Sequence record: MK524177.1
From: Escherichia phage PHB10
Direction: 5' to 3' (one strand)
DNA length: 57,228 bases
In this document: piece by piece, positions 204 to 57,228 of the stretch
Layout: each line of letters begins with the position of its first letter
How positions within the stretch are numbered: the first letter of the stretch is position 1
Made by a program: the position numbers and the translations under genes
The notes under the pieces: generated by a model
Seen by the model: only the letters and a program-made list of their open reading frames with translations
Databases searched by the model: none
What the model was told of the DNA's origin: nothing

Positions 204-1007
204 TCAAAGGTATCTTTTCTTTAGATCTTCAAGCCTGCTGTTTTCTTGCTCTGTAAAGCCAGAAGCATCAAACATCGCTTCTTTATTTGCACCATTTACT
301 CTCGTTACTGTAACTGTGAAGACCGCATCAGCTGGAGCATCAACCTGCCCCCATTCAGAAAACTTATTCGGAGCCAATGCCCAAGTAGCTTCTTCACCCG
401 GTTCAAGCCCGCCAGCAATTTCGTAGTTAAAATCTTTTTCCAGCCATGGAACTGAACGTCCATCGCTGGCTATCACACCATTGAAGTACACACGGGAAAT
501 AGCTTTATCAGTATTGTTTTTCACAACAAGGCGAATAATAGGTTGTGGCTTCCCATACTCTTCAGGTTCCAGGCTAAATCGAGATGATAGAACCTGTACT
601 TTTTTGAGTTCTTCTTTGGCCTTCTCAGAGTCAGCTTTTTTCTGTTCAAGCTCTTTGATTTCCTGAATAGCCTGCTCTTTCTGCTTAAGTTCCCTCTCGG
701 CAGTTACTTGCTGAGCATAAGAGATGATTTCCTCTCCAGTTTTGCCAGACAGGGGCTCGCGCATCTTCTTGCTTAGATCTTCTTTGTCACTTTCTGACGA
801 TGCTCGCATTAGGTCAGCCATATTAATGTTACTGAACGCTACGACCTTTAAAGCGCTATCAAATTCTTCCCGTTTATTTTCCGGAAGAGATTCTCTGACC
901 TTGGCTATAGATGATTTCATTGCGTCATCAGTTGATGAGTCAATTTTAGGTTTATCGCACCCGGCTAATAAGAAGGAAAGAAATAACACACCTACAATTT
1001 TTTTCAT
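204..1007 (-). CDS. lipoprotein of unknown function (moron between tape measure gene and M)
   Basis: Signal peptide with lipobox MKKIVGVLFLSFLLAGC; Lys/Glu-rich coiled-coil middle; lower GC by eye; lambda has no gene between H and M. Confidence 0.65.
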   Translation of the reverse strand: MKKIVGVLFLSFLLAGCDKPKIDSSTDDAMKSSIAKVRESLPENKREEFDSALKVVAFSNINMADLMRASSESDKEDLSKKMREPLSGKTGEEIISYAQQVTAERELKQKEQAIQEIKELEQKKADSEKAKEELKKVQVLSSRFSLEPEEYGKPQPIIRLVVKNNTDKAISRVYFNGVIASDGRSVPWLEKDFNYEIAGGLEPGEEATWALAPNKFSEWGQVDAPADAVFTVTVTRVNGANKEAMFDASGFTEQENSRLEDLKKRYL

Positions 1008-1082: not shown

Positions 1083-3995
1083 TTATCTTGATTTCGTTGC
1101 ATTCCAGATGAGACCTCCAGGCTGGAGCTGTTTGGCTATACCTGCGCGTACTGACTGATCAATGGTCTGCTTGTAAGCCCGAGAAATGGCGTCACTGTCA
1201 TCAGAAGCCTGCTGCTGAGTGTTCTGGTTATGAACGATCACGGACGTTTGAACGGTTACGCCGCCAGTTGCCGAAGATTGCAGCCCATACATCGGGGCGT
1301 GGCCAACATAGCCGCCGTTTGCATATCCCTGAGCTCCACGCATAAGCGCATAGAGATTACCGACACCCAGCGCACTGGTCGCTTCCTTCGTAAACACAAA
1401 CTCACCACCGTGAACTACGCCTTTCGGTTGGTATTTGCCGCCATCACCGGTGTAACCGCCGCTATCGAATCCCGGCACCAGACCGCCACCAGAGAAACCA
1501 AAAAACGCCCCGATACCCGTTCCACCAAAGGCTGACTTCATTCCATTAACCAGAGCCAGTTGAGTCAGCATCTGGGTTATGCCCTTCAGGAAGGTAGTCA
1601 GGAAGTCTGAGAAGTTAGATTTACCAGTAGTAAAAAAGTCAGTGAGTGTGCTGGCCATCCCGGTGAACGCATTGTTGGTAATCGTCTGCACCTGCGAGTA
1701 AACATTAGTCGCGCTGTCCTCAAATTCAGCCCAACCCTTTTTCGCGCCGGTCAACCAGTCGCCACGCAACCTGTCCTCTGCATCATAGTAATCATTCGCC
1801 GCTTTAAGCTGCTTCTGATAGCCCTCGTCGTCAAGCGTGCCGCCAGAGTTGATCCAGCCAGAGGAAAGCTGGCTCTTTGCCAGCTCACGTTGTGCCTGAA
1901 GGTCACTCATTCCGGCACCGTTCACTAATGCAGCCTGCTTTTCTGCCATCTGCGTGACGTATTTCTGCGAGGTATCCATGCGCTTATTCAGCAGTTCTTG
2001 CGCAGAAATCTGATCACCCAACAGGGCTTTCTGCCGCGCTAACTGCAGCACCTGGTCTTTACTCGCGAGCAGGGATTGCTCCTGCTTTGTCAGAGAGCGA
2101 GATCGGGAGGCCTCCTCCAGCACCTGAAATTTCGCTTCAGTCGTCCACAGATCTTTGCGCTGCTGGCTGATAGTGTCGTTCAGCCCTTTATGCTGCTGCA
2201 GCGCGCGTAACTGTGCCTGAAGCGCCAGCAGCTCGGCCTGGGCAGCGTCCGTGCTGCGATCGCCAGCCGATAAAGAGCCCTGCTTTCCGGTTTTGGTCTT
2301 TTTGCCAAAAGAAGCGACTCCTTCCCGATCCTTCTGGGTGGTTGCGGTACTTATCTTTCTGGTCGTATCGAGGTATTTACCTGCACTGATATCAGCGGCA
2401 TCCCAGTCTTTTTTCAGCTGAGAGACGCTGTCGCCATAAGCGCCGGCCATTTGTTCGTTATAGTCCTGCCATCCCTGCAAAGTATCCGTTTTCGCCCAGT
2501 CAGGAATGAGATTAATCGCAGCCGCGATAGAGGAAGAAATGATCTGGTTCAGCTTCTGGAAAACGATCGCTACGCTGTAATAAATTGCGTTGAATTCCTT
2601 CAGTGTGTTTGATGCCAGCTCAGCAACCCACTGACCGATACTCTGCATAGCCCCAGACGCCCAGCCCTTGATATCCAGCCACAGGCGACCAAACGGTGTC
2701 AGCGAGTCGTAAGCCTGCTCTCCACGTTCTGCCATCGTATCGCCAAACAGGTCCATAGCCTGCGTAACGGCCGCTGTCTGGTCCTTTTGCTTCACCAGCT
2801 CATCAATGTGCTTAAGCTGTGAAACGGTCAGGAAATTATATTGTTCGTTGAGACTCTGCAGCGCTTTAACAGGGTCTTTTTCGATGTCCTTATAGGCTTT
2901 GGTGATGTCCTGCGCCGAGACTATACCGGTCTGAACCGCCAGCGCCGTGGAGCCCGCTGCTTTTTCAAGTTGCTGCTGTGTCAGCGATCCCATGCCAACC
3001 AGTTCAGTCATTAAACTCTGAACGGTTCCTACAGTCGCGCCAGTAGAGGCAGCAATAGACTGGGAGGAAGCCATGATCTGGAGCGCTGACGTGCCGGCAA
3101 TGTTGCCAGTCCTGATAATAGCCTTGTTGATTTCGTCGTAGGCGGTGAAGTAGTCCGAACCCGCTTTTGCAGCAATCAGAACAGCACCGGCCAGGCCACC
3201 AATGGCCACTCGGGCAGGAGTCACCATCGACAACATCGCTTTCAGAGCATTGTTTACACCGCCAAACGAATCGCGCAGCTGGCCGCCCTGCTGAATGGCC
3301 ACCATATAAACCGGCATACCGGACGCCAGTGAGGTCACAATGTCGGTCATTTGCATCGGGAGATAACGCATCGCGTTGCGGTATTGCCCCGCGCTGATCG
3401 CTCCTGACTTCCACGCTTCCTCCTGCTCTTTCAGTCGGGCGATCATCGGTGCAGCACGATCGGACACGCCAAGTTGGGCTGCTTTTAGCTCTAATAGTTC
3501 TGCGCGCGTTTTTCCGATTGCTGTGACCTGCTCTTCCAGCGAATCGATAAAGGTTTTGCCCGCCGCAGCTGCACGCTGTGCTGCCTGTGCCTGTTCAATG
3601 CGAGCCCGCCCCTCTGCGGTCTCACACTCCATGACCTGCGCCAGTTTAGCTCGGGTCGTCTCAAGCACGCTGTTGTAGCGAGTAAAGTCTTCATCCCCTA
3701 CCAGCCCTTTACCGCGAAACTTCGCCAGGCTCTCCTGGATCGTGTCCAGTTCATCCAGCGCCTTGTTTACCGGGCTAATTTTATTCAGCAGGTTCTGCAA
3801 CTCCTGGCGCTGTTGCTTCAGACTTTCGCTGTTTTTCTTTTGGTTATCGATACCGGTGCGGAACGTACTGTTCAGGTCATCAGCTTTACCTGCCGCGGCG
3901 GTCGCGGTTTCCTGAAAGCGATCCAGTGCCTGATTGCCGCGCTCCAGCTCACTGGTATTTACACGCAGGGAAATCGTGGCGATATCGTTACTCAT
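1083..3995 (-). CDS. tail tape measure protein (H-like)
   Basis: 970 aa, coiled-coil-rich, Gly-rich C-terminus; lies between the G/GT chaperone and M as in lambda; start overlaps the GT stop (ATGA). Confidence 0.85.
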
Positions 3996-4312
3996 TCCGC
4001 CCTCTCTTTATGCATAATTTTTAGCGCAGCACTTTCCATCACCCGGATGTCCGAAAGCGCGGTTGCCTCGTCGTCGACGTTGTGCAAACGCATCACCCAG
4101 GGCAAAACGTTATAGTCGAGCCCGGACGCGCCCCCCATTCCCGTTCGCCATTGCGTACTGACAGTCTGAAACACCAGGAATGAAGTCCATACATCTGGCC
4201 AGACGTCGATGTATTGATCGTCGTAATCATCCGGCGTAAGCCCGTATGGTGCCAGGTCTGCCGCTGTGGGTTCAGGCGTATAGAACGCAGAGGCAACCGC
4301 TATCAGTTTTTT
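3992..4312 (-). CDS. GT-type -1 frameshift extension of the tail assembly chaperone
   Basis: Slippery AAAAAAC (minus strand, 4312..4306) just before the G stop; the -1 frame stays open to 3992 and its stop overlaps the tape measure start. Confidence 0.65.
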
Positions 4313-4614
4313 TCGCGCTGCCCCATCAGCTCGCGGTAGTAGGTTTCCGGGATGGCCTTCATCGCCGCCGGATAGTTTTCCAGCAGCACCGACAGGTTTT
4401 CCGCGTTGAATGCATCCGGAAGTGCCCAGCCAGCAATGATTTCCATCAGAAAATCAGTGGCGGTTTTACCTTCGAGTTTTTCGAGGTCAGCCAGTTCTTT
4501 AAGTGGCTTGTGGTTGAACGTGAACGTCAACACGCCATCCTCATCGCCAGCTCGGGGGATCGAGACATTGGCCTTGAATGTAGGTTTTGGCTGAAGGGAG
4601 AATTTGGTCGCCAT
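4303..4614 (-). CDS. tail assembly chaperone (G-like)
   Basis: 103 aa ORF directly upstream of the tape measure gene; ends at a slippery heptamer. Confidence 0.75.
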   Translation of the reverse strand: MATKFSLQPKPTFKANVSIPRAGDEDGVLTFTFNHKPLKELADLEKLEGKTATDFLMEIIAGWALPDAFNAENLSVLLENYPAAMKAIPETYYRELMGQREKN

Positions 4615-4678
4615 CGATACCTCTTAACGAAAAAAGCCTCCATTATGAGAGGCATGGAATAGTGAAAGCTCTGACGGG

Positions 4679-5350
4679 TCAGGCGGCAGCGTCAGTTACC
4701 TTGTAGAACGTCATCGCCGGTGACTGCAGGTTCAGCACCACACTTACTGTCTCTACCTCGTTAACCGCAGTAGTTGGCGTATCGTCAAAGGACGCCGTGG
4801 CCGCCCAGTAACGGTTTTCCTTCGCCTTCGGCACGTACATGTAAGCCGCAACCGTCTCTTCGTCTTCGTCCAGTTGGCGCAGCAACGGATATACCGGGAG
4901 AGTTGAGTCGTGAGCGATCGAGTAGGTCTGAGAGACAGCGGATTTATAAGTATTCAGGTTGCGCTGGCGATCATCGCTCAGGAACTGAATCTGTGTGGTG
5001 TTCTGATCGCCACCAGATTTCGACACCTCAGTAATTTGCGGCAGCTCGGTCCATTCAAGCACCTTGCGGATCGAACCGGTACCGCCACCAGCGGCATATT
5101 TGTTTTTGTTGGTGGTATTGATATTGCGAAGAGTTACGGCGCTTTCGGCAATCGCATCAATTTTTGCAATGACGTTATCAACACCGGACCAGTTGCAGTT
5201 CACATGAACAATATCACCCACCTTGAGTGCGTCCGCTTCACTCACGGTGATCACCATATTTTCGGCGTTCGTCGCCCCGGTGAAAGTAATGGCTGGGCCA
5301 TAACCCGATGCCAGATAGACGTGAGCGCCGTTAGGCAATGCAAAGCCCAT
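4679..5350 (-). CDS. major tail protein (V-like)
   Basis: Position upstream of the G/GT chaperone; likely start at MGFALPNG (ATG 5350) preceded by AAGGAG. Confidence 0.65.
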   Translation of the reverse strand: MGFALPNGAHVYLASGYGPAITFTGATNAENMVITVSEADALKVGDIVHVNCNWSGVDNVIAKIDAIAESAVTLRNINTTNKNKYAAGGGTGSIRKVLEWTELPQITEVSKSGGDQNTTQIQFLSDDRQRNLNTYKSAVSQTYSIAHDSTLPVYPLLRQLDEDEETVAAYMYVPKAKENRYWAATASFDDTPTTAVNEVETVSVVLNLQSPAMTFYKVTDAAA

Positions 5351-5416
5351 ATTGGTTACTCCTTTAGAAACGGGAAAACCGGCAAAGTGCCGGTCAGTTT
5401 TAGAAGGTTGCAAGGA

Positions 5417-50490: not shown

Positions 50491-50789
50491 GCATTCTCCA
50501 CGAAGACCACCAGTTCACATTCCGAGGCCGGATAATTACCAATACCAACTTCGCTGGCAGTGCTGAGAGTGATGGTGTTCCCGTTAGCGATAATGCGTCG
50601 ACCCACCGAGACCGCGCCCTTATCAAGGGACACCGCAAATCCGACCTTCATCCCCGCCGGAATGGTAAAGGACCAGTTGCCCGAGGTTTGCCCCTCGGAA
50701 AGCTGAATACGCCCTACCACTGATACGGGTTTGATACCGTAGTTGTTCGGGATGCCGTTGGCGTCCCAGGTCTGAATACCCCAGGCCAT
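50487..50789 (-). CDS. tail-associated protein of unknown function
   Basis: 100 aa; start overlaps the J stop. Confidence 0.4.
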   Translation of the reverse strand: MAWGIQTWDANGIPNNYGIKPVSVVGRIQLSEGQTSGNWSFTIPAGMKVGFAVSLDKGAVSVGRRIIANGNTITLSTASEVGIGNYPASECELVVFVENA

Positions 50790-53700
50790 TAAAACACTCC
50801 TGTAAGTTTGCCTATCTGAACACGGAGCCTGTTAGCATCCCGAATGCTGATGGTGACGTTAGTCTGCTTCATGCCTCCGGAACTGTCGCTCCCGTAGTTC
50901 TGCATCGTTCCGTCTTTACCCCAGCGCCAGCCAGCGCTTCCGGCAACATAATTATTAGACTGCAGAGAATCCGTAATTTTACCGAACTGGATACTCGCAT
51001 CACGGAAGAACGCATCATTGATGAATGTCTGCCCGTTCTGGATAACAAATGGCAAAGAAACAGTGCTGCCAGCTTGGGAGGTAACGGCAAAACGGTCGGC
51101 CAGGAAGATAACCTGTGACTGCATCCCTGATGGCGTATTCTCCACCCCGATCCCCATTCCTGCAGCGTAATACTGGCCATTACTCGTTACCCCAACTTTG
51201 ATGTTGTACATCGCGCTGAGCTGGCCGTTTACGTTCGCAATGGCCTGGGCGTTCGTGGTGATAGAGGCAGTATGTCCATTGACTGTCGCCGTAATAGCAT
51301 TTATCTGCGTGGCTGTAGACTGCTGATAATTCGAAACCGTATCGCTCAGGCTGTTGATGGATGCCGTATTACCGTTGACGTTCGTTTGCAGACTCAGCAA
51401 TGCGCGTGCCGTTGCCTCCCTGTCATTGACGATCACCTCATCAATGCGGTCTAGCTGCGCGCTGTTACCGGCAACCGAAGCCGACAGGGTTTTACGTGTG
51501 GCCACCTGAGCGAGGTTGGCCTGGATTATCGCAATTGCCGAGTTCTTCACGCCTCCTGTCATGCCGTCCATCGAAACAGAAATCTCGTCTATCTTCACTT
51601 CGGCCTGCGCCAGCCCGTCAGCGTTCTCCTGGATGTCTTTCGCCTGCTGCTCGAGCTCGTCGGCATGCTTTTTAATGTCATCCGCCATGCCTGCAACTTT
51701 TTCGTTGCTGTCCACTGCGTTCTCGATCAGGTCTTTGAAGGTATCAGAGTCTTTCATTCCCTCCAGAATCACATCGGTGATGTCAGAAACATCGATACTT
51801 GCCTGTCCTCGCACCCATTCTGTGTACCCTGATTCGTTGCCGCTGCGGTCCACCAGCTGCGCGCGGTACCAGAAAATCTGCTCAGCCTTAAGGCCCATCT
51901 GCTGATATTTGCGCTGCGGGTAAGGCACATCGGCCAGCAGCATCGCATCTTCTTCGGTACCAGTCAGGCTGTACTGAATTTCCGTCTTCAGCGTGTCGTC
52001 GGTATTCGCCGGGAATCCCCAGTTGAGCTCGATACCGAATACCACGCTTTCAGAAGCGATGAAGCCAACCGGCTTCGGTGGATTGCCCACTTTACCCGTC
52101 AGCGTTTTCTCTTCTGAATAGCCCCAGCCTGACGAAATTTCGGCAGCATTGATGGCGCGCACGCGCACCAGGTAGCGCCCGGCATAAATCCCCGGGACGT
52201 CGAATGATGTGGTGGAGCTGCGCGGCACGTTAACCCAGTTCCCGTCGTTGCGGCGCCATTGCGCTTCATAGGCGATAGCGTTCTGCGCCTGGTCCCAGCT
52301 CACGCGCATCGTTTCGACACTGATATTTTGCTGCACCACAGAAAACGAGCTGATGACGATGTTCGCAGGCGGCGACTGGTTGCCCGGCGGGATCACGCTC
52401 ACCGGCCGCTGGTCAATGATGGCTCCGGTATCAATGCGATCGAATTTATCCGGATCGTGATTTGCACCGACGATTGTGAACGTGCCGTCATTATTATCAG
52501 TTACTGTAATAACGCGATACTGCTGTGCGTAGAGCTCATCAGACTCAATGACCCATACGGCCTCGGCCTGTGGAAGCTCGCTAAAGGCGGTTGTCACGGT
52601 AACCATTCCACCTGACAGGGACTGAATCGTCCGGGATTGGGTAATACCCGACGGCAGGTTTACCATTATCCTGTCACCGGCCTTAGCACTTGGCACCCGG
52701 TCAAGTTTGAGTACACGACCATTAACCGCGGATAATCGACCGCCTAAATCTCGGCCAGAGAGATTTCGGTCAGCGACAGCAATTATGTAGCCAGGCTGAG
52801 GAATATTGCCGTCCAGACCAACGTCAAACGTTACAATCCTATCTTTATTGTTGGTCAGGATCCCCCAGCGCCCTTTCCTGTTAGCCTCAGATTGCCGGGT
52901 GCATCCGATAGCGGTGATCTCAAGCTGGTTGAAACCATAGCGCGCCACCAGAGCCTGCTCGAAGACGGGCTCCATTGCGTCAGCATAGCCATTTGCCGGA
53001 TCCGACCAGGAAACAAGAGCGTTTGTGTAGCGACTTTTAGTTGTGCTACTGGAATACACAAATTTGCCGTCAACTACGTTAGCGTGCGTGTAGGTAAAAT
53101 CGACATCTCTGGGCATGTCTGCAAGGGCAACAATCTGGTCGTCTCCCCAGTAGGTCATACCTCGAAAAATGGCGGCAAAGTCTCGCAGCACAGTGTAAGC
53201 GTCATTTCGATCTTGAATGTATACGTTGCAGGTGTAACGCGGTTCAGTTCCGCTCCCCCCCTTACCATCCGGTACCAGTTGATCACAATACTGAGCGACC
53301 TGATAAAGGGTCCATTTATCAATATTGGCTGCTGTTAGCCGATTACCAAGGCCGAAGCGGTCAGTGACTACCAGATCGTAAAATATCCACGCAGGGTTAT
53401 CCGTCCATGCCCACTTAAATGCTCCCGTCCAGGTGCCGCTGTACGTTCGTGTTTCTGGGTCATAGGTATCGGGCACACGAATAACACGCCCGCGGGGCTC
53501 GCAAGAAATTTGCGGAATTGAGCCATTGAACTGGCTCGAATCAAATTCGATGTACAGTAGCGCGGTGTTCGGATAGCGCAATTTGGCGTCGATTACTTCT
53601 GTGAAGCTTTGCAGCGTCATCGTGTCGCCAATCTTAGCGCTATTTGCGTCTGCGGTAATCTTGCGCAGCCTGATGGTCCAGGTGCTGCCCGCCTGAGGTA

Positions 53701-54238
53701 AATCAATACGGTGGCTGCGTTCATAACCAGAGGTGGTTTTCCCGGTCACGCTGGTATTTAGCACCGTCTGCCAGGTACCGCCATCTGTCTGCAGGTCAAA
53801 TGCGTAGTTGACCGAATAGCCAACCAGATCGCCATCGTCCTCCTGTTTGAAGAGAGAAGGCCATTTTAGACGCAGGCGAACAGCTGAAAGCTGCGTATTG
53901 GTGAACGTGCGCGTCCACGCTGTAGAGCTGGAAACTTCGGAACCTACATTGATTTCATTTTCGGTACCTGGGATCCCTTGAATGTATTTTTGCGCCTGAG
54001 TTCCAGAACGAAACTCCCACGCCACGCCGCTGAAGTTCTGTGAACCATCTGCGTTCTCAAGTGCGGTGCCATCGAGATAAATATCGCGCGCAGTAAGTCC
54101 ACCAGCAAACTCCCCCTCTCCCAGCGCGAGAAGGATTTTTGCCTTGGCAACTGACTGCAGGTCGTCTGGCTGTTCTGTAGGAGTTCTTGAGCTTGAACTG
54201 CCGCCCTTGCGGCCTTTAATAGCGGTTGCTATAGCCAT
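50789..54238 (-). CDS. host specificity / central tail fibre protein J
   Basis: 1149 aa; lambda J-like length, composition and position after I. Confidence 0.9.
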   Translation of the reverse strand: MAIATAIKGRKGGSSSSRTPTEQPDDLQSVAKAKILLALGEGEFAGGLTARDIYLDGTALENADGSQNFSGVAWEFRSGTQAQKYIQGIPGTENEINVGSEVSSSTAWTRTFTNTQLSAVRLRLKWPSLFKQEDDGDLVGYSVNYAFDLQTDGGTWQTVLNTSVTGKTTSGYERSHRIDLPQAGSTWTIRLRKITADANSAKIGDTMTLQSFTEVIDAKLRYPNTALLYIEFDSSQFNGSIPQISCEPRGRVIRVPDTYDPETRTYSGTWTGAFKWAWTDNPAWIFYDLVVTDRFGLGNRLTAANIDKWTLYQVAQYCDQLVPDGKGGSGTEPRYTCNVYIQDRNDAYTVLRDFAAIFRGMTYWGDDQIVALADMPRDVDFTYTHANVVDGKFVYSSSTTKSRYTNALVSWSDPANGYADAMEPVFEQALVARYGFNQLEITAIGCTRQSEANRKGRWGILTNNKDRIVTFDVGLDGNIPQPGYIIAVADRNLSGRDLGGRLSAVNGRVLKLDRVPSAKAGDRIMVNLPSGITQSRTIQSLSGGMVTVTTAFSELPQAEAVWVIESDELYAQQYRVITVTDNNDGTFTIVGANHDPDKFDRIDTGAIIDQRPVSVIPPGNQSPPANIVISSFSVVQQNISVETMRVSWDQAQNAIAYEAQWRRNDGNWVNVPRSSTTSFDVPGIYAGRYLVRVRAINAAEISSGWGYSEEKTLTGKVGNPPKPVGFIASESVVFGIELNWGFPANTDDTLKTEIQYSLTGTEEDAMLLADVPYPQRKYQQMGLKAEQIFWYRAQLVDRSGNESGYTEWVRGQASIDVSDITDVILEGMKDSDTFKDLIENAVDSNEKVAGMADDIKKHADELEQQAKDIQENADGLAQAEVKIDEISVSMDGMTGGVKNSAIAIIQANLAQVATRKTLSASVAGNSAQLDRIDEVIVNDREATARALLSLQTNVNGNTASINSLSDTVSNYQQSTATQINAITATVNGHTASITTNAQAIANVNGQLSAMYNIKVGVTSNGQYYAAGMGIGVENTPSGMQSQVIFLADRFAVTSQAGSTVSLPFVIQNGQTFINDAFFRDASIQFGKITDSLQSNNYVAGSAGWRWGKDGTMQNYGSDSSGGMKQTNVTISIRDANRLRVQIGKLTGVF

Positions 54239-54245
54239 ATTGCGC

Positions 54246-54270
54246 CCATAAAAAAAGCCACCGGGAGGTG
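54246..54270 (-). terminator. intrinsic terminator-like hairpin between I and J
   Basis: gccacc-tccc-ggtggc followed on the minus strand by U7, 10 nt upstream of the J start. Confidence 0.45.
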
Positions 54271-54288
54271 GCTTGTTGATAAATCTAT

Positions 54289-54891
54289 TTACTGTTGGTC
54301 TTCTACATAGATACCGGCGGAGATGATCGCGCCACCTATACGGCGCCGTCCGTACAAGAGTGGTACCGGATTGCCCTGAGCTGTCGTATTTGTTACTCCA
54401 CCAAAGGCATAACTGGCCTTGTTGTCTGCCGATTGCTTGCTGGCAAGTCCGGTTGTCTGTGGAGAAAGCATTTGAACGACACCGCCAAGGGCCATCGCAG
54501 CGCCAAATTGCATTAGAGGAACGCCGACAGCACCACCGCCAAAGTATGACGCCACAGCACCAACTGCGACCAAAGCCACACCTAAGATGGTCTGGAATAC
54601 TCCACCACGTTTACTCCCGAGGATAACCGGCGCGATACGGATATCAGCGGTACTCTGATCCATAGAGAGTTCATCATCGTTCAGGTTACGCTTACCGCTG
54701 AATACAGCGTAAGTAAGCCCACGCTGCTTGCTGGTATTCAAAAACCGCTCGAAGCCTGGCACTATAACGCACAATGCACGGATGGCTTCTTTAGGCGAAG
54801 CAACAGAAAGTTTGAATTCACGACCAAATGTTGAGCCAAGTATTCCATAGAGGCGTATGGTTCTCATCGGCTGACCAGTTAAAAATGTCAT
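54289..54891 (-). CDS. tail assembly protein I
   Basis: Lambda gpI-like; likely start MTFLTGQ at 54891 with GGAGG SD. Confidence 0.8.
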   Translation of the reverse strand: MTFLTGQPMRTIRLYGILGSTFGREFKLSVASPKEAIRALCVIVPGFERFLNTSKQRGLTYAVFSGKRNLNDDELSMDQSTADIRIAPVILGSKRGGVFQTILGVALVAVGAVASYFGGGAVGVPLMQFGAAMALGGVVQMLSPQTTGLASKQSADNKASYAFGGVTNTTAQGNPVPLLYGRRRIGGAIISAGIYVEDQQ

Positions 54892-54985
54892 ACATGCCTC
54901 CAAAGTCTCTCTTGACTAAGAGAGACTATTAATGTTGATAGACTTTTTGATGTTTTTAACACGCAATCCAAGAATTCAAATCAAC

Positions 54986-55597
54986 TTACTTATTTTTGGC
55001 TGACGGATTAGCAACTTCTGGGTGTTTTTTATTGAATTCTATAAAGCTACTTGGGCATTCCTTTGAAAGTAAATAATAATTTACTAAACATGCATCCGCC
55101 TTAGCTTCATCGCTCGAATGATACACACCATCTGCCAAAGATAATGTCGGAGCTAAATACCTGGCTTTAATCAACTCTTGCCCCAACGCCAAAGCATCCT
55201 TAGAAGTAGCTGCTGAACAAGACGTAACAGCACCGTCAAATAACGTCTTATTACCTTTGCAATTTAAGGACGCATCTAAGAAGGACTCGTGTAAATCGGT
55301 GCGCACTTGAATAAATGCAGGATCAGTAATATTTGAACCAGCCAAGATCCCTATCAGACCTAACCCACCTCCGATTGTAGCAATGGCTGAACCATTGGCG
55401 AGGTTCAAATCTCCCCATACCAACCATCGCAACAGGAAAAAACTCACTGCTACGGACGTTATCAAATATCCAAACCCAGTCCATAGATTGTGACTGTGCC
55501 CGAAGAAACTCAAGCATGCAAGCCCGACCCCAACGACAAATGGAACGCAGACAACGACCATTTTAATATAAAAATTATTCAAGTTGACAAATGCCAC
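54986..55597 (-). CDS. membrane protein of unknown function (moron inserted between K and I)
   Basis: About 3 N-terminal TM helices plus soluble C-terminal domain; AT-rich by eye; lambda K and I are adjacent; start uncertain (GTG 55597 or ATG 55561). Confidence 0.5.
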   Translation of the reverse strand: MAFVNLNNFYIKMVVVCVPFVVGVGLACLSFFGHSHNLWTGFGYLITSVAVSFFLLRWLVWGDLNLANGSAIATIGGGLGLIGILAGSNITDPAFIQVRTDLHESFLDASLNCKGNKTLFDGAVTSCSAATSKDALALGQELIKARYLAPTLSLADGVYHSSDEAKADACLVNYYLLSKECPSSFIEFNKKHPEVANPSAKNK

Positions 55598-55633
55598 ATT
55601 AATATCCGTTAATGAAGTAAGTTGGGCTCATTA

Positions 55634-56347
55634 TTATATAAACTTCGATTGATGGCGAAGGATTTTGTTTGTCCTCTCACGCCAATATCCACCATATGGC
55701 ACACGCTGGCTTAAATGACCGTAAAGATGATGAAGTAAGATATCACCTTCAAGCAATATGCCGGCATGGTTCCACTTGTTAGACTGAACTTGCATGATCA
55801 CCATATCCCCCGGTTGCAGCGGCCCGTCGAATTCACGGAAACCACACTCATACCAGCAATCCTGATAGAAATTGTCCAGATAGCAGTCCTCCCACCACGG
55901 ATAATCAACACGGTAATCTTTCAATTCGATACCATGTTCCTGCCTGTAATAGCTCATCACCAGTCCCCAACAGTCATAGTGTCCAAGCACAAACGGCCGC
56001 CCGATCAGTGGCAAATCACCGCGGGGAGTGATGGTGCGAAAGTCGCCTTCCGGCCAACTGACAATATGCCAGGGCAGCAACGTTGCATCGCATTGAGCCT
56101 TGTCCAGTTCGCTTGGTTGGGTTGTCGCGTCAGGGTGACTATGTACGATTCCCGTTATCGTCCCCCAGTCTTCAGCAGCGGCGTAATCCTCTGGTGAAAG
56201 GTGAAACTGTTCCGTTGGTTCAGCAGCCAGATTACGGCATGGAAAATAGCGTTCCACCCGGCTTTTCTGCGCTATCACGCCGCAGCATTCGTGGGGATAG
56301 TCTTTCGCAGCATGTGACAGGATGTCCTGAATTGTTTTCTGACGCAT
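55634..56347 (-). CDS. tail assembly protein K (JAB/MPN plus NlpC/P60 domains)
   Basis: JAMM motif HSHPDATTQPSELD and NlpC/P60-like Cys in YDCWGLV. Confidence 0.85.
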   Translation of the reverse strand: MRQKTIQDILSHAAKDYPHECCGVIAQKSRVERYFPCRNLAAEPTEQFHLSPEDYAAAEDWGTITGIVHSHPDATTQPSELDKAQCDATLLPWHIVSWPEGDFRTITPRGDLPLIGRPFVLGHYDCWGLVMSYYRQEHGIELKDYRVDYPWWEDCYLDNFYQDCWYECGFREFDGPLQPGDMVIMQVQSNKWNHAGILLEGDILLHHLYGHLSQRVPYGGYWRERTNKILRHQSKFI

Positions 56348-56348
56348 G

Positions 56349-57104
56349 TTAACTCCTGATCAAAGATGTTCCCGGAAAACCACCGAAAGGAAGTTCATTG
56401 TGTTCACCAAACCGAAGCTTGCAGGCGGTGAGCGTGCCGTTGCATTCATCCAATGAGGGATCGCTTACCGGATTGTTGTTTCTGTCGAAGTAAAGCGTGC
56501 CGGCATAATCGCACCCATCGCCGGTGCGGTACCTATTCCGGATGCACCATGTGCAAAGGGAATGCAACTGTCTGGTCGGAATCATCAATCCCTGCAGATC
56601 CATCGGGCTGGTAAGAACAAACTCGATACTTTCACCGGGAAGCTCACTATTTTTACCGTCGATATAGAAAACCCGCTTCCTCACCTGCAAGGGATCTGCT
56701 GTTGGATTTCCATCCGAGAAATTGCGCGCATCCAGGTAATGCGCAAAAGTGTCATGAATCGTAACTTTGGCCTGCAGCATATCGTCATAGGCCAGACAGA
56801 GCGCAGTGATAGAGCTGTCAATGTTGGCGACGGTGAGCGTCGGCTGGGCGCTACTGCCATCGGTTGACGCTTCCAGTCCCTCGAGCTTATATGGCCAGGC
56901 ACCATACTCTTCGCCCTGCCACCAGATACTCTTCGCCTTTAACTTTGATTCGTCGCCGCCAGCAGCCGCAATCTCTTCTTCAGTATGCGGGAGGTTATAA
57001 GCGTGAAAGCGCAGAACGTCGTCCAGACCAAACGCAGAACCGTCTACCTCAAGAAGACGTATTTTTTCACCCGGTTCGAGGTGTTGATAATCTTCAGTAA
57101 TCAT
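56349..57104 (-). CDS. minor tail protein L
   Basis: 251 aa with C-terminal Cys cluster CTWC...C...C as in lambda gpL; start overlaps the M stop (ATGA). Confidence 0.85.
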   Translation of the reverse strand: MITEDYQHLEPGEKIRLLEVDGSAFGLDDVLRFHAYNLPHTEEEIAAAGGDESKLKAKSIWWQGEEYGAWPYKLEGLEASTDGSSAQPTLTVANIDSSITALCLAYDDMLQAKVTIHDTFAHYLDARNFSDGNPTADPLQVRKRVFYIDGKNSELPGESIEFVLTSPMDLQGLMIPTRQLHSLCTWCIRNRYRTGDGCDYAGTLYFDRNNNPVSDPSLDECNGTLTACKLRFGEHNELPFGGFPGTSLIRS

Positions 57105-57228
57105 GGTGCGTATGCCTGTTTGAAGGTTGCTTTTATAGTCATCACTTTGCTGGATAGCGGCTGGACTTTAATGGAATCAGCTTCAATCCGGTATAAACCG
57201 GTTTCGCCGACAGGAGACGTCCAGATAA
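57105..57228 (-). CDS. minor tail protein M, C-terminal portion (gene start lies beyond window end)
   Basis: Open frame ...IWTSPVGETGLYRIEADSIKVQPLSSKVMTIKATFKQAYAP* ending at TGA overlapping the L start; resembles the lambda gpM C-terminus as I recall it. Confidence 0.6.

Follow-up and report, generated by a model that had tools for sequence, protein, structure and literature searches.

The locus between the major tail protein gene and the tape measure gene of Escherichia phage PHB10 (MK524177.1) raises the question of how a reading frame without a start codon of its own could be expressed, and whether it is expressed at all. We addressed it in the window, i.e., the whole 57,228-nt stretch of DNA that was analysed, and in related phages. 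The original prediction had described the locus as the canonical programmed frameshift of long-tailed phages, and protein domains, synteny, conserved junctions, and the phase of polymorphism all support this description. We conclude from the comparative evidence set out below that the locus very probably carries a site of programmed -1 ribosomal frameshifting, of the G/GT type known from phage tail assembly chaperones.

The first of the two frames, G, is a tail assembly chaperone ORF of 103 codons (4614..4303, minus strand), which starts with an ATG at 4614 preceded, at 5 nt, by the Shine-Dalgarno (SD) sequence AAGAGG. Its 3' end reads CAG CGC GAA AAA AAC TGA TAG. The slippery heptamer A_AAA_AAC is indeed found on the minus strand at 4312..4306, phased in the zero (G) frame, so that it comprises the last A of Glu101 and the codons of Lys102 and Asn103. 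It had been placed two codons before the G stop, whereas in fact it directly adjoins the TGA (4305..4303): AAC is the final sense codon of G, zero codons separate the heptamer from the stop, and a second in-frame stop, TAG, follows immediately. The first codon of the -1 frame, CTG (Leu), is composed of the C of AAC and the first two bases of the G stop. From there, the extension T (4306..3992, minus strand) runs for 104 codons to a TGA at 3994..3992. As predicted, the -1 frame is open to 3992; the open region begins at 4456 and contains 154 codons, 104 of them past the slip. The conceptual GT product, join(4614..4306, 4306..3992), has 207 aa. The proposed ATGA overlap with the start of the tape measure gene is likewise present, as the T stop shares bases with the ATG at 3995..3993 of that gene (1083..3995, minus strand; 970 aa), whose SD sequence GAGAGGG is situated at 4006..4000. 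An antisense ORF on the plus strand (4246..4662, 138 aa) was discarded as a shadow ORF, since the first positions of its codons match the highly variable third positions of G.

Both halves belong to known families, Pfam matches being judged against the curated gathering thresholds. G matches Phage_TAC_4 (PF08748; E 1.8e-29, residues 1-103; 102.9 bits against a cut-off of 21.1) and phrog_569 (E 1.2e-42), while T matches DUF1799 (PF08809; E 2.2e-22; 79.5 bits against a cut-off of 26) and phrog_680 (E 8.8e-37). One more profile, phrog_17368, spans both halves, G aligning to profile positions 6-107 and T to 116-211; thus, G-T fusions already constitute a family in phage databases. Searches of the PDB by sequence and by profile gave no match, nor did Foldseek with the full GT model; 2ob9 (HK97 chaperone) and 3klu (B. 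subtilis YqbN) are solved examples of the tail assembly chaperone fold.

The neighbouring genes are those of a tail operon. All on the minus strand, the order is tube protein, Phage_TAC_4 (G), DUF1799 (T), and tape measure protein. The major tail (tube) protein gene lies immediately 5' of G (4679..5413, minus strand) and is identified by Phage_tail_3 (2.4e-50) and by phrog_584, major tail protein (8.2e-87); the tape measure product matches TMP_2 (1.5e-55), Tape_meas_lam_C (6.3e-21), and phrog_24 (1.9e-250). The tube gene is preceded by tail terminator, tail completion, head closure, adaptor, and major capsid genes, and the window also contains terminase, portal, and scaffold genes and the L/K/J tip genes, which makes for a seemingly complete morphogenetic module. 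The frameshift had been taken to confirm the integrity of this module. The complete head-to-tail operon does support integrity, but the frameshift site itself is no proof of it. Circular closure of the window was considered and rejected, as the reading frame is not maintained where its two ends meet. A consensus scan found a terminator-like hairpin, GCCTCTCATAATGGAGGC, followed by a T-run, in the interval separating the tube gene from G (4626..4653, minus strand). Terminator-like sites such as this one are equally numerous in shuffled sequences, and its possible role as an attenuator is offered only as a lead.

The heptamer by itself is unremarkable. AAAAAAC occurs 27 times in the window, with 11.9 copies expected from shuffles; the chance of finding it on the right strand and in the right frame within the 151-nt overlap zone is ~0.01, and the chance of its adjoining the G stop is ~2e-4. 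Since the heptamer alone is not significant, the significance of the arrangement comes from the domain hits and from the comparison with relatives. The abundance of AAAAAAC favours, if anything, a trivial explanation, namely that the -1 ORF is a remnant without expression, or stands next to a common heptamer by chance. This explanation is contradicted by the strong DUF1799 match and by the retention of the arrangement in more than 1,000 phage genomes, and a further objection comes from the polymorphism data considered below.

A near-identity DNA search against phages yielded no match, so a protein-level search was needed. In a tblastn search of 50,697 phage records with the 207-aa fusion, 1,172 records were matched, and among the matches listed every near-full-length one consisted of two pieces. 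The matched phages include T1-like Drexlerviridae, Dhillonvirus, phiES15, and phages of Klebsiella, Ralstonia, Pseudomonas, Vibrio, and Xanthomonas; the closest named phage among the matches listed is Cronobacter phage phiES15, with 63% amino acid identity. Of eleven diverse records examined, ten yielded both halves, and each of these ten has T in the -1 frame. The enteric phages (T1, IME347, mar001J1, HH3, phiES15, and an E. coli prophage) have A_AAA_AAC followed by a stop, while the Ralstonia, Pseudomonas, and Vibrio phages have G_GGA_AAC.

Closer to PHB10, 80 loci were collected from IMG/VR, of which 79 were analysable. The junction is identical in 76 of these 79, and the other three carry assembly-type indels; the run preceding the C is A7 in 79 of the 80 loci and A8 in the remaining one. 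All 20 unique junctions from the phiES15 clade and from intermediates are of the standard form. Among 92 unique distant junctions, both T1-like and metagenomic, A_AAA_AAC was observed in 47 and G_GGA_AAC in 35 (together 82/92). Five Rtp-like phages carry GCA_AAG_GTC_TAA instead, A_AAG being a known motif, and the remaining distant junctions are A8 fusions or broken assemblies. The heptamer adjoins the stop in 77 of the 92 distant junctions and in all close ones. Overall, the -1 frame combined with X_XXA_AAC was found in ~180 of ~190 distinct junctions, over a range of 31-99% amino acid identity.

Two details localize the shift further. In HH3 and six further loci of the comparison, CGT GAA creates a TGA in the -1 frame immediately 5' of the A-run. 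This leaves the two frames an overlap of exactly 7 nt and confines the shift to the heptamer. In the GT protein alignment, Asn103 and Leu104 are invariant; they correspond to the AAC codon and to the codon made of C plus the TR of the stop. The alternative codons GAG, AAG, and AAT were never seen within the heptamer in close relatives, the phiES15 clade, or intermediates, this invariance being counted outside the set used for the Gly98 codon, whose loci were picked by a heptamer-containing regular expression. The claim that the arrangement is conserved holds within the Phage_TAC_4/DUF1799 family (T1-like phages, Dhillonvirus, phiES15-like phages); it does not extend by sequence homology to the G/T pair of lambda, which is analogous.

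The same junctions bear on the possibility that T is a separate protein, produced by initiation, or by termination and reinitiation, at the CTG 4306..4304, which shares bases with the G stop. The PGAP annotation of NZ_CP015912, a 91%-identical E. coli prophage, starts the DUF1799 CDS exactly at this CTG, and the CTGA resembles the ATGA-type coupling overlaps found elsewhere in the operon. Yet no SD sequence was found within 5-10 nt 5' of 4306, and phiES15, T1, HH3, and about half of the relatives have CTA at the corresponding position, a codon that does not serve for initiation. Nor does the -1 frame contain any ATG, GTG, or TTG between 4456 and 4174, where the GTG at 4174 already lies within the DUF1799 domain. 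Separate synthesis of T would also leave the invariant slippery heptamer without explanation, and it sits poorly with the AlphaFold model, in which a single continuous helix (residues 84-112) is predicted to cross the G|T junction. Independent initiation of T is therefore extremely improbable.

A second alternative is transcriptional slippage, in which RNA polymerase would add one A on the A7 run and so bring G and T into one frame, the junction reading ...R-E-K-K-L.... The A7 run in the window permits it, and recoding by polymerase slippage at runs of A is well established (PMC5009743). Moreover, four public contigs of related phages have A8 and carry G and T fused in frame, showing that the run is indel-prone at some level, be it that of the polymerase or of the sequencer. 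What the family conserves, however, is a phased heptamer and not a homopolymer. In T1-like phages, the run is no longer than A6 (GCA AAA AAC), more than one-third of the distant junctions use G_GGA_AAC, which has no long run, and the five Rtp-like phages use A_AAG; efficient slippage by E. coli RNA polymerase generally requires runs of ~9 or more. In addition, the heptamer always keeps the X_XXY_YYZ register of the G frame, for which polymerase slippage has no need. We consider this explanation very unlikely, though slightly less so than independent initiation of T.

The distribution of polymorphism among 57 unique close relatives provides evidence on which frames are translated. Upstream of the heptamer, nucleotide diversity is 0.232 at third positions of the G frame, against 0.022 and 0.0045 at the other two; downstream, it is 0.178 at third positions of the -1 frame, against 0.008 and 0.037. 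Variable residues number only 35 of 104 in the T frame, compared with 81 of 103 in each of the other frames. The third-position polymorphism and the small number of variable T residues indicate that both frames are translated and constrained, with the switch at the slip site. Purifying selection on the G and -1 frames, each on its own side of a phase change at the heptamer, is thus supported. The same pattern is the further objection to a remnant or a chance pairing announced above: taken together, the domain hits and the selection signal effectively refute that reading, whose probability we regard as close to nil.

The ribosomal frameshift could proceed as follows. Most ribosomes translating G would read GAA AAA AAC and stop at TGA, producing the 103-aa G protein, while a minority would slip back by one base on A_AAA_AAC. 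In one route, tRNA-Lys and tRNA-Asn would re-pair in tandem, from AAA-AAC to AAA-AAA; in the other, only peptidyl-tRNA-Asn would slip, during the slow decoding of the stop codon in the A site, as in the "shifty stop" idea (Weiss et al., 1987, as cited in PMC5009743). Either route would give ...R-E-K-N-L-I-A-V..., with reading resumed at CTG ATA GCG and continued to the TGA at 3992, yielding the 207-aa GT protein. Tandem slippage of tRNA-Lys and tRNA-Asn appears to be the best mechanism, with a possible contribution of the single P-site slip. In E. coli, A_AAA_AAC is less shift-prone than A_AAA_AAG (PMC5009743), which fits the need for low-level shifting; with this comparatively weak shifter, the efficiency in PHB10 could be very low. 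On the model of lambda, the tape measure protein would be coated by G and by the G part of GT, the T domain would recruit the tube protein encoded just upstream, and neither chaperone would remain in the virion. The sequences show the layout of the site, the families of its two halves, the coding selection that changes frame at the heptamer, and the conservation of the signal; the ribosomal nature of the shift, its low efficiency (a few per cent), and these protein-protein roles we infer.

Elements that could stimulate the shift were sought on both sides of the heptamer. Downstream of it in the window, the minimum free energy (MFE) is -16.6 kcal/mol, with z-scores between -0.4 and -1.5 in three fold windows, which is not significant, and the RNAalifold consensus over 67 unique sequences amounts to only -2.5 kcal/mol. 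The MFE stem was rejected as a conserved structure, as the 3'-arm variants GGCTGAAC and GGCAGAAC in relatives break pairs without compensation. In the PHB10 lineage, no stable conserved hairpin was found at 5-9 nt 3' of the heptamer, where it would be expected in a structure-stimulated signal of the dnaX/IS type. A small hairpin, GGCGT/ACGCC, is present in intermediates and was discarded, being broken by the commonest variant of the window clade (GCA). Upstream, an SD-like GGGG (4324..4321, minus strand) was dismissed as well, since the Gly98 codon varies among GGG, GGC, GGA, and GGT in relatives.

T1-like phages, HH3, and the Ralstonia and Vibrio phages at first looked promising for a downstream hairpin. 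T1-like phages do have a strong one, GGCGGTT...AACCGCC, starting 7 nt past the heptamer (z about -3.4). A family-wide hairpin was nonetheless rejected: over 77 distant junctions, the mean z is -0.6, and the 27% that fall below -2 are mostly from Tunavirus. Judging by these sequences, the strong downstream hairpin is lineage-specific, being confined to T1-like phages and a few other relatives.

Two minor points remain, the constrained 3' stretch and the near-universal adjoining stop in the Phage_TAC_4/DUF1799 family. The former covers the first 12 codons past the slip (4306..4271, minus strand), where the sliding-window synonymous diversity of 0.149 is the lowest of 196 windows (median 0.321). 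Exact runs shared with phiES15 include 24 nt at 4295..4272 and 13 nt over the heptamer, the two longest in 800 nt, at an overall nucleotide identity of 64%. The stretch could be a sequence-level modulator of the shift, or it could be a recombination joint; touching on the latter reading, two of the compared loci have a G that is 88% but a T that is only 60% identical to phiES15. On the former, one may tentatively imagine that the Phage_TAC_4/DUF1799 signal is composite, consisting of X_XXA_AAC, an obligatory adjoining stop (a "shifty stop"), and a sequence-specific, non-hairpin 3' element at 4306..4271. We consider this rather unlikely; if true, it would define a separate sub-type of G/GT signal, one in which the G:GT ratio is tuned by means other than RNA structure.

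Of the G/GT criteria of Xu, Hendrix, and Duda (2004), all those open to testing were recovered at this locus, namely synteny, the -1 overlap, the absence of an own start, a phased heptamer, conservation, and dual-frame selection. The prototype is the G/GT pair of lambda (Levin, Hendrix, and Casjens, 1993; Xu, Hendrix, and Duda, 2004, 2013, 2014, as summarised in PMC5009743), and G-T frameshifting is widely conserved in phages (PMC5009743). As in lambda, the interval separating the major tail gene from the tape measure gene contains two ORFs, of which the second occupies the -1 frame without a start of its own, a canonical heptamer occurs near the end of G, and the expected products, here predicted from sequence, are a short chaperone and a rarer G-T fusion. 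In lambda, the G:GT ratio is ~30:1, and the binding partners of G and T are the tape measure protein and the major tail protein, respectively (PMC5009743). The G/GT definition also has both G and GT as necessary for tail assembly. The two systems differ in sequence and position of the slip site, which is G_GGA_AAG, several codons ahead of the G stop, in lambda, and A_AAA_AAC, directly adjoining the stop, here. The Pfam families of lambda gpG and gpT were not matched, Phage_TAC_4 and DUF1799 being the only Pfam matches; at the level of sequence, the PHB10 pair is thus a functional and positional analogue of lambda G/T and not a demonstrable homologue.

Much closer are the pairs of T1-like phages (Drexlerviridae), Dhillonvirus, and phiES15, which share the protein families, the A_AAA_AAC-plus-stop junction, and the -1 frame, although the PHB10 lineage lacks the strong hairpin of T1-like phages and the Rtp-like relatives use GCA_AAG_GTC_TAA at this place. 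A heptamer AAAAAAC adjoining the chaperone stop has also been noted for gp12/gp13 of Acinetobacter phage Loki (PMC5313236); its host and genome are different. E. coli dnaX and IS elements share with the PHB10 site an enterobacterial host and an A-rich heptamer for tandem -1 slippage. In dnaX, A_AAA_AAG is flanked by an SD-like element on its 5' side and a hairpin on its 3' side and provides ~50% shifting, whereas PHB10 has the weaker AAC variant, with neither a significant hairpin nor a conserved SD-like element.

Taken together, the sequence comparisons indicate that the PHB10 G/GT site is real and functional, and that it is of a textbook kind already known. For the Phage_TAC_4/DUF1799 family, it constitutes one further family-level example of a well-established rule and answers no open question. 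Its value is mainly practical. Close relatives are systematically misannotated: RefSeq presents the 91%-identical E. coli prophage without a frameshift, the start codon of the RefSeq/PGAP "DUF1799 protein" is just the first codon read after the slip, and GenBank phage records usually give two separate or truncated CDSs. The correct annotation would be a join() CDS encoding the 207-aa GT protein. For PHB10 itself, the site fits a tail-assembly module that appears to be intact and correctly organised.

Synonymous diversity reaches its minimum for the entire G-T region in the 12 codons directly after the A_AAA_AAC slip site (4271–4306, minus strand); the region comprises the tail assembly chaperone gene G and its −1-frame extension T. 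A 24-nt run within these codons matches the Cronobacter phage phiES15, the closest named phage to this G-T pair, exactly, at an overall identity of only 64%. Folding revealed no stable or covarying RNA structure that accounts for this. In T1-like phages, a strong hairpin begins 7 nt past A_AAA_AAC, formed by GGCGGTT...AACCGCC and enclosing a TCTG/CAGA stem, with fold z-scores of about −3.3 to −3.7; it occurs at positions 1808–1837 of the T1 locus (L003) and in loci L005 and L117–L132. This hairpin is likely a lineage-specific frameshift stimulator, and by folding and junction comparison it is not present in the lineage of the window.

The 64-nt gap between the stop codon of the tube gene and the start of G holds a hairpin picked up by the scan for terminator-like sites, GCCTCTCATAATGGAGGC followed by TTTTTT (4626–4653, minus strand). 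It could act as a transcription attenuator that keeps the chaperones and the tape measure protein less abundant than the tube protein. In the same scan, shuffled sequences yield as many terminator-like sites as the window, and hence the hairpin is treated as a lead only.

The T ORFs are mostly truncated in GenBank phage records. In E. coli NZ_CP015912.1 (locus L001, 3596–3910), RefSeq/PGAP calls the DUF1799 protein an independent CDS with a CTG start, which is the first −1-frame codon past the slip; this independent CDS is an artefact that arose because the annotation did not model the frameshift. Two IMG/VR loci, L101 and L102, are 88% identical to phiES15 in G and only 60% identical in T, while their T resembles that of the window lineage, which suggests a recombination joint at the G|T boundary.

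Elsewhere in the window, a gene for a 267-aa lipoprotein of the DUF6694 family (204–1007, minus strand) separates the tape measure gene from the minor tail and tip genes, an unusual, moron-like position; the arrangement is common to the window and the E. coli prophage of NZ_CP015912.1. The tip genes L, K, and J occupy 50789–57104, and a phage-borne tRNA-Arg with anticodon TCT, reading AGA, lies at 17805–17881 on the minus strand. The window begins and ends within a gpM-like minor tail gene, with its N-terminal part at 1 to approximately 150 and its C-terminal part at 57105–57228, both on the minus strand; these two parts differ in reading frame, and about 15–20 residues are missing. The window thus resembles a single, circularly permuted phage genome from which a few tens of bases are absent.

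The heptamer AAAAAAC is over-represented in the whole window: it occurs 27 times, whereas shuffling that preserves dinucleotides predicts 11.9 occurrences (0 of 100 shuffles reach 27). Among relatives, the X_XXA_AAC pattern is absent from the Rtp-like loci L142–L146 and from Klebsiella phage P61_2 (L011). These carry GCA_AAG_GTC_TAA or CAA_AAG_CCT_TAA, one codon ahead of the stop, which is an A_AAG single-tRNA slip motif. In four publicly available contigs (L012/L149, i.e., IMGVR_UViG_3300025728_000347, and L147, L148, and L166), which represent three sub-lineages, A8 replaces A7 at the slip site, so that G and T lie in one frame with the product REKKL.... The longer run is either a homopolymer sequencing error or genuine run-length variation; if it is real, these phages would produce the GT fusion only.
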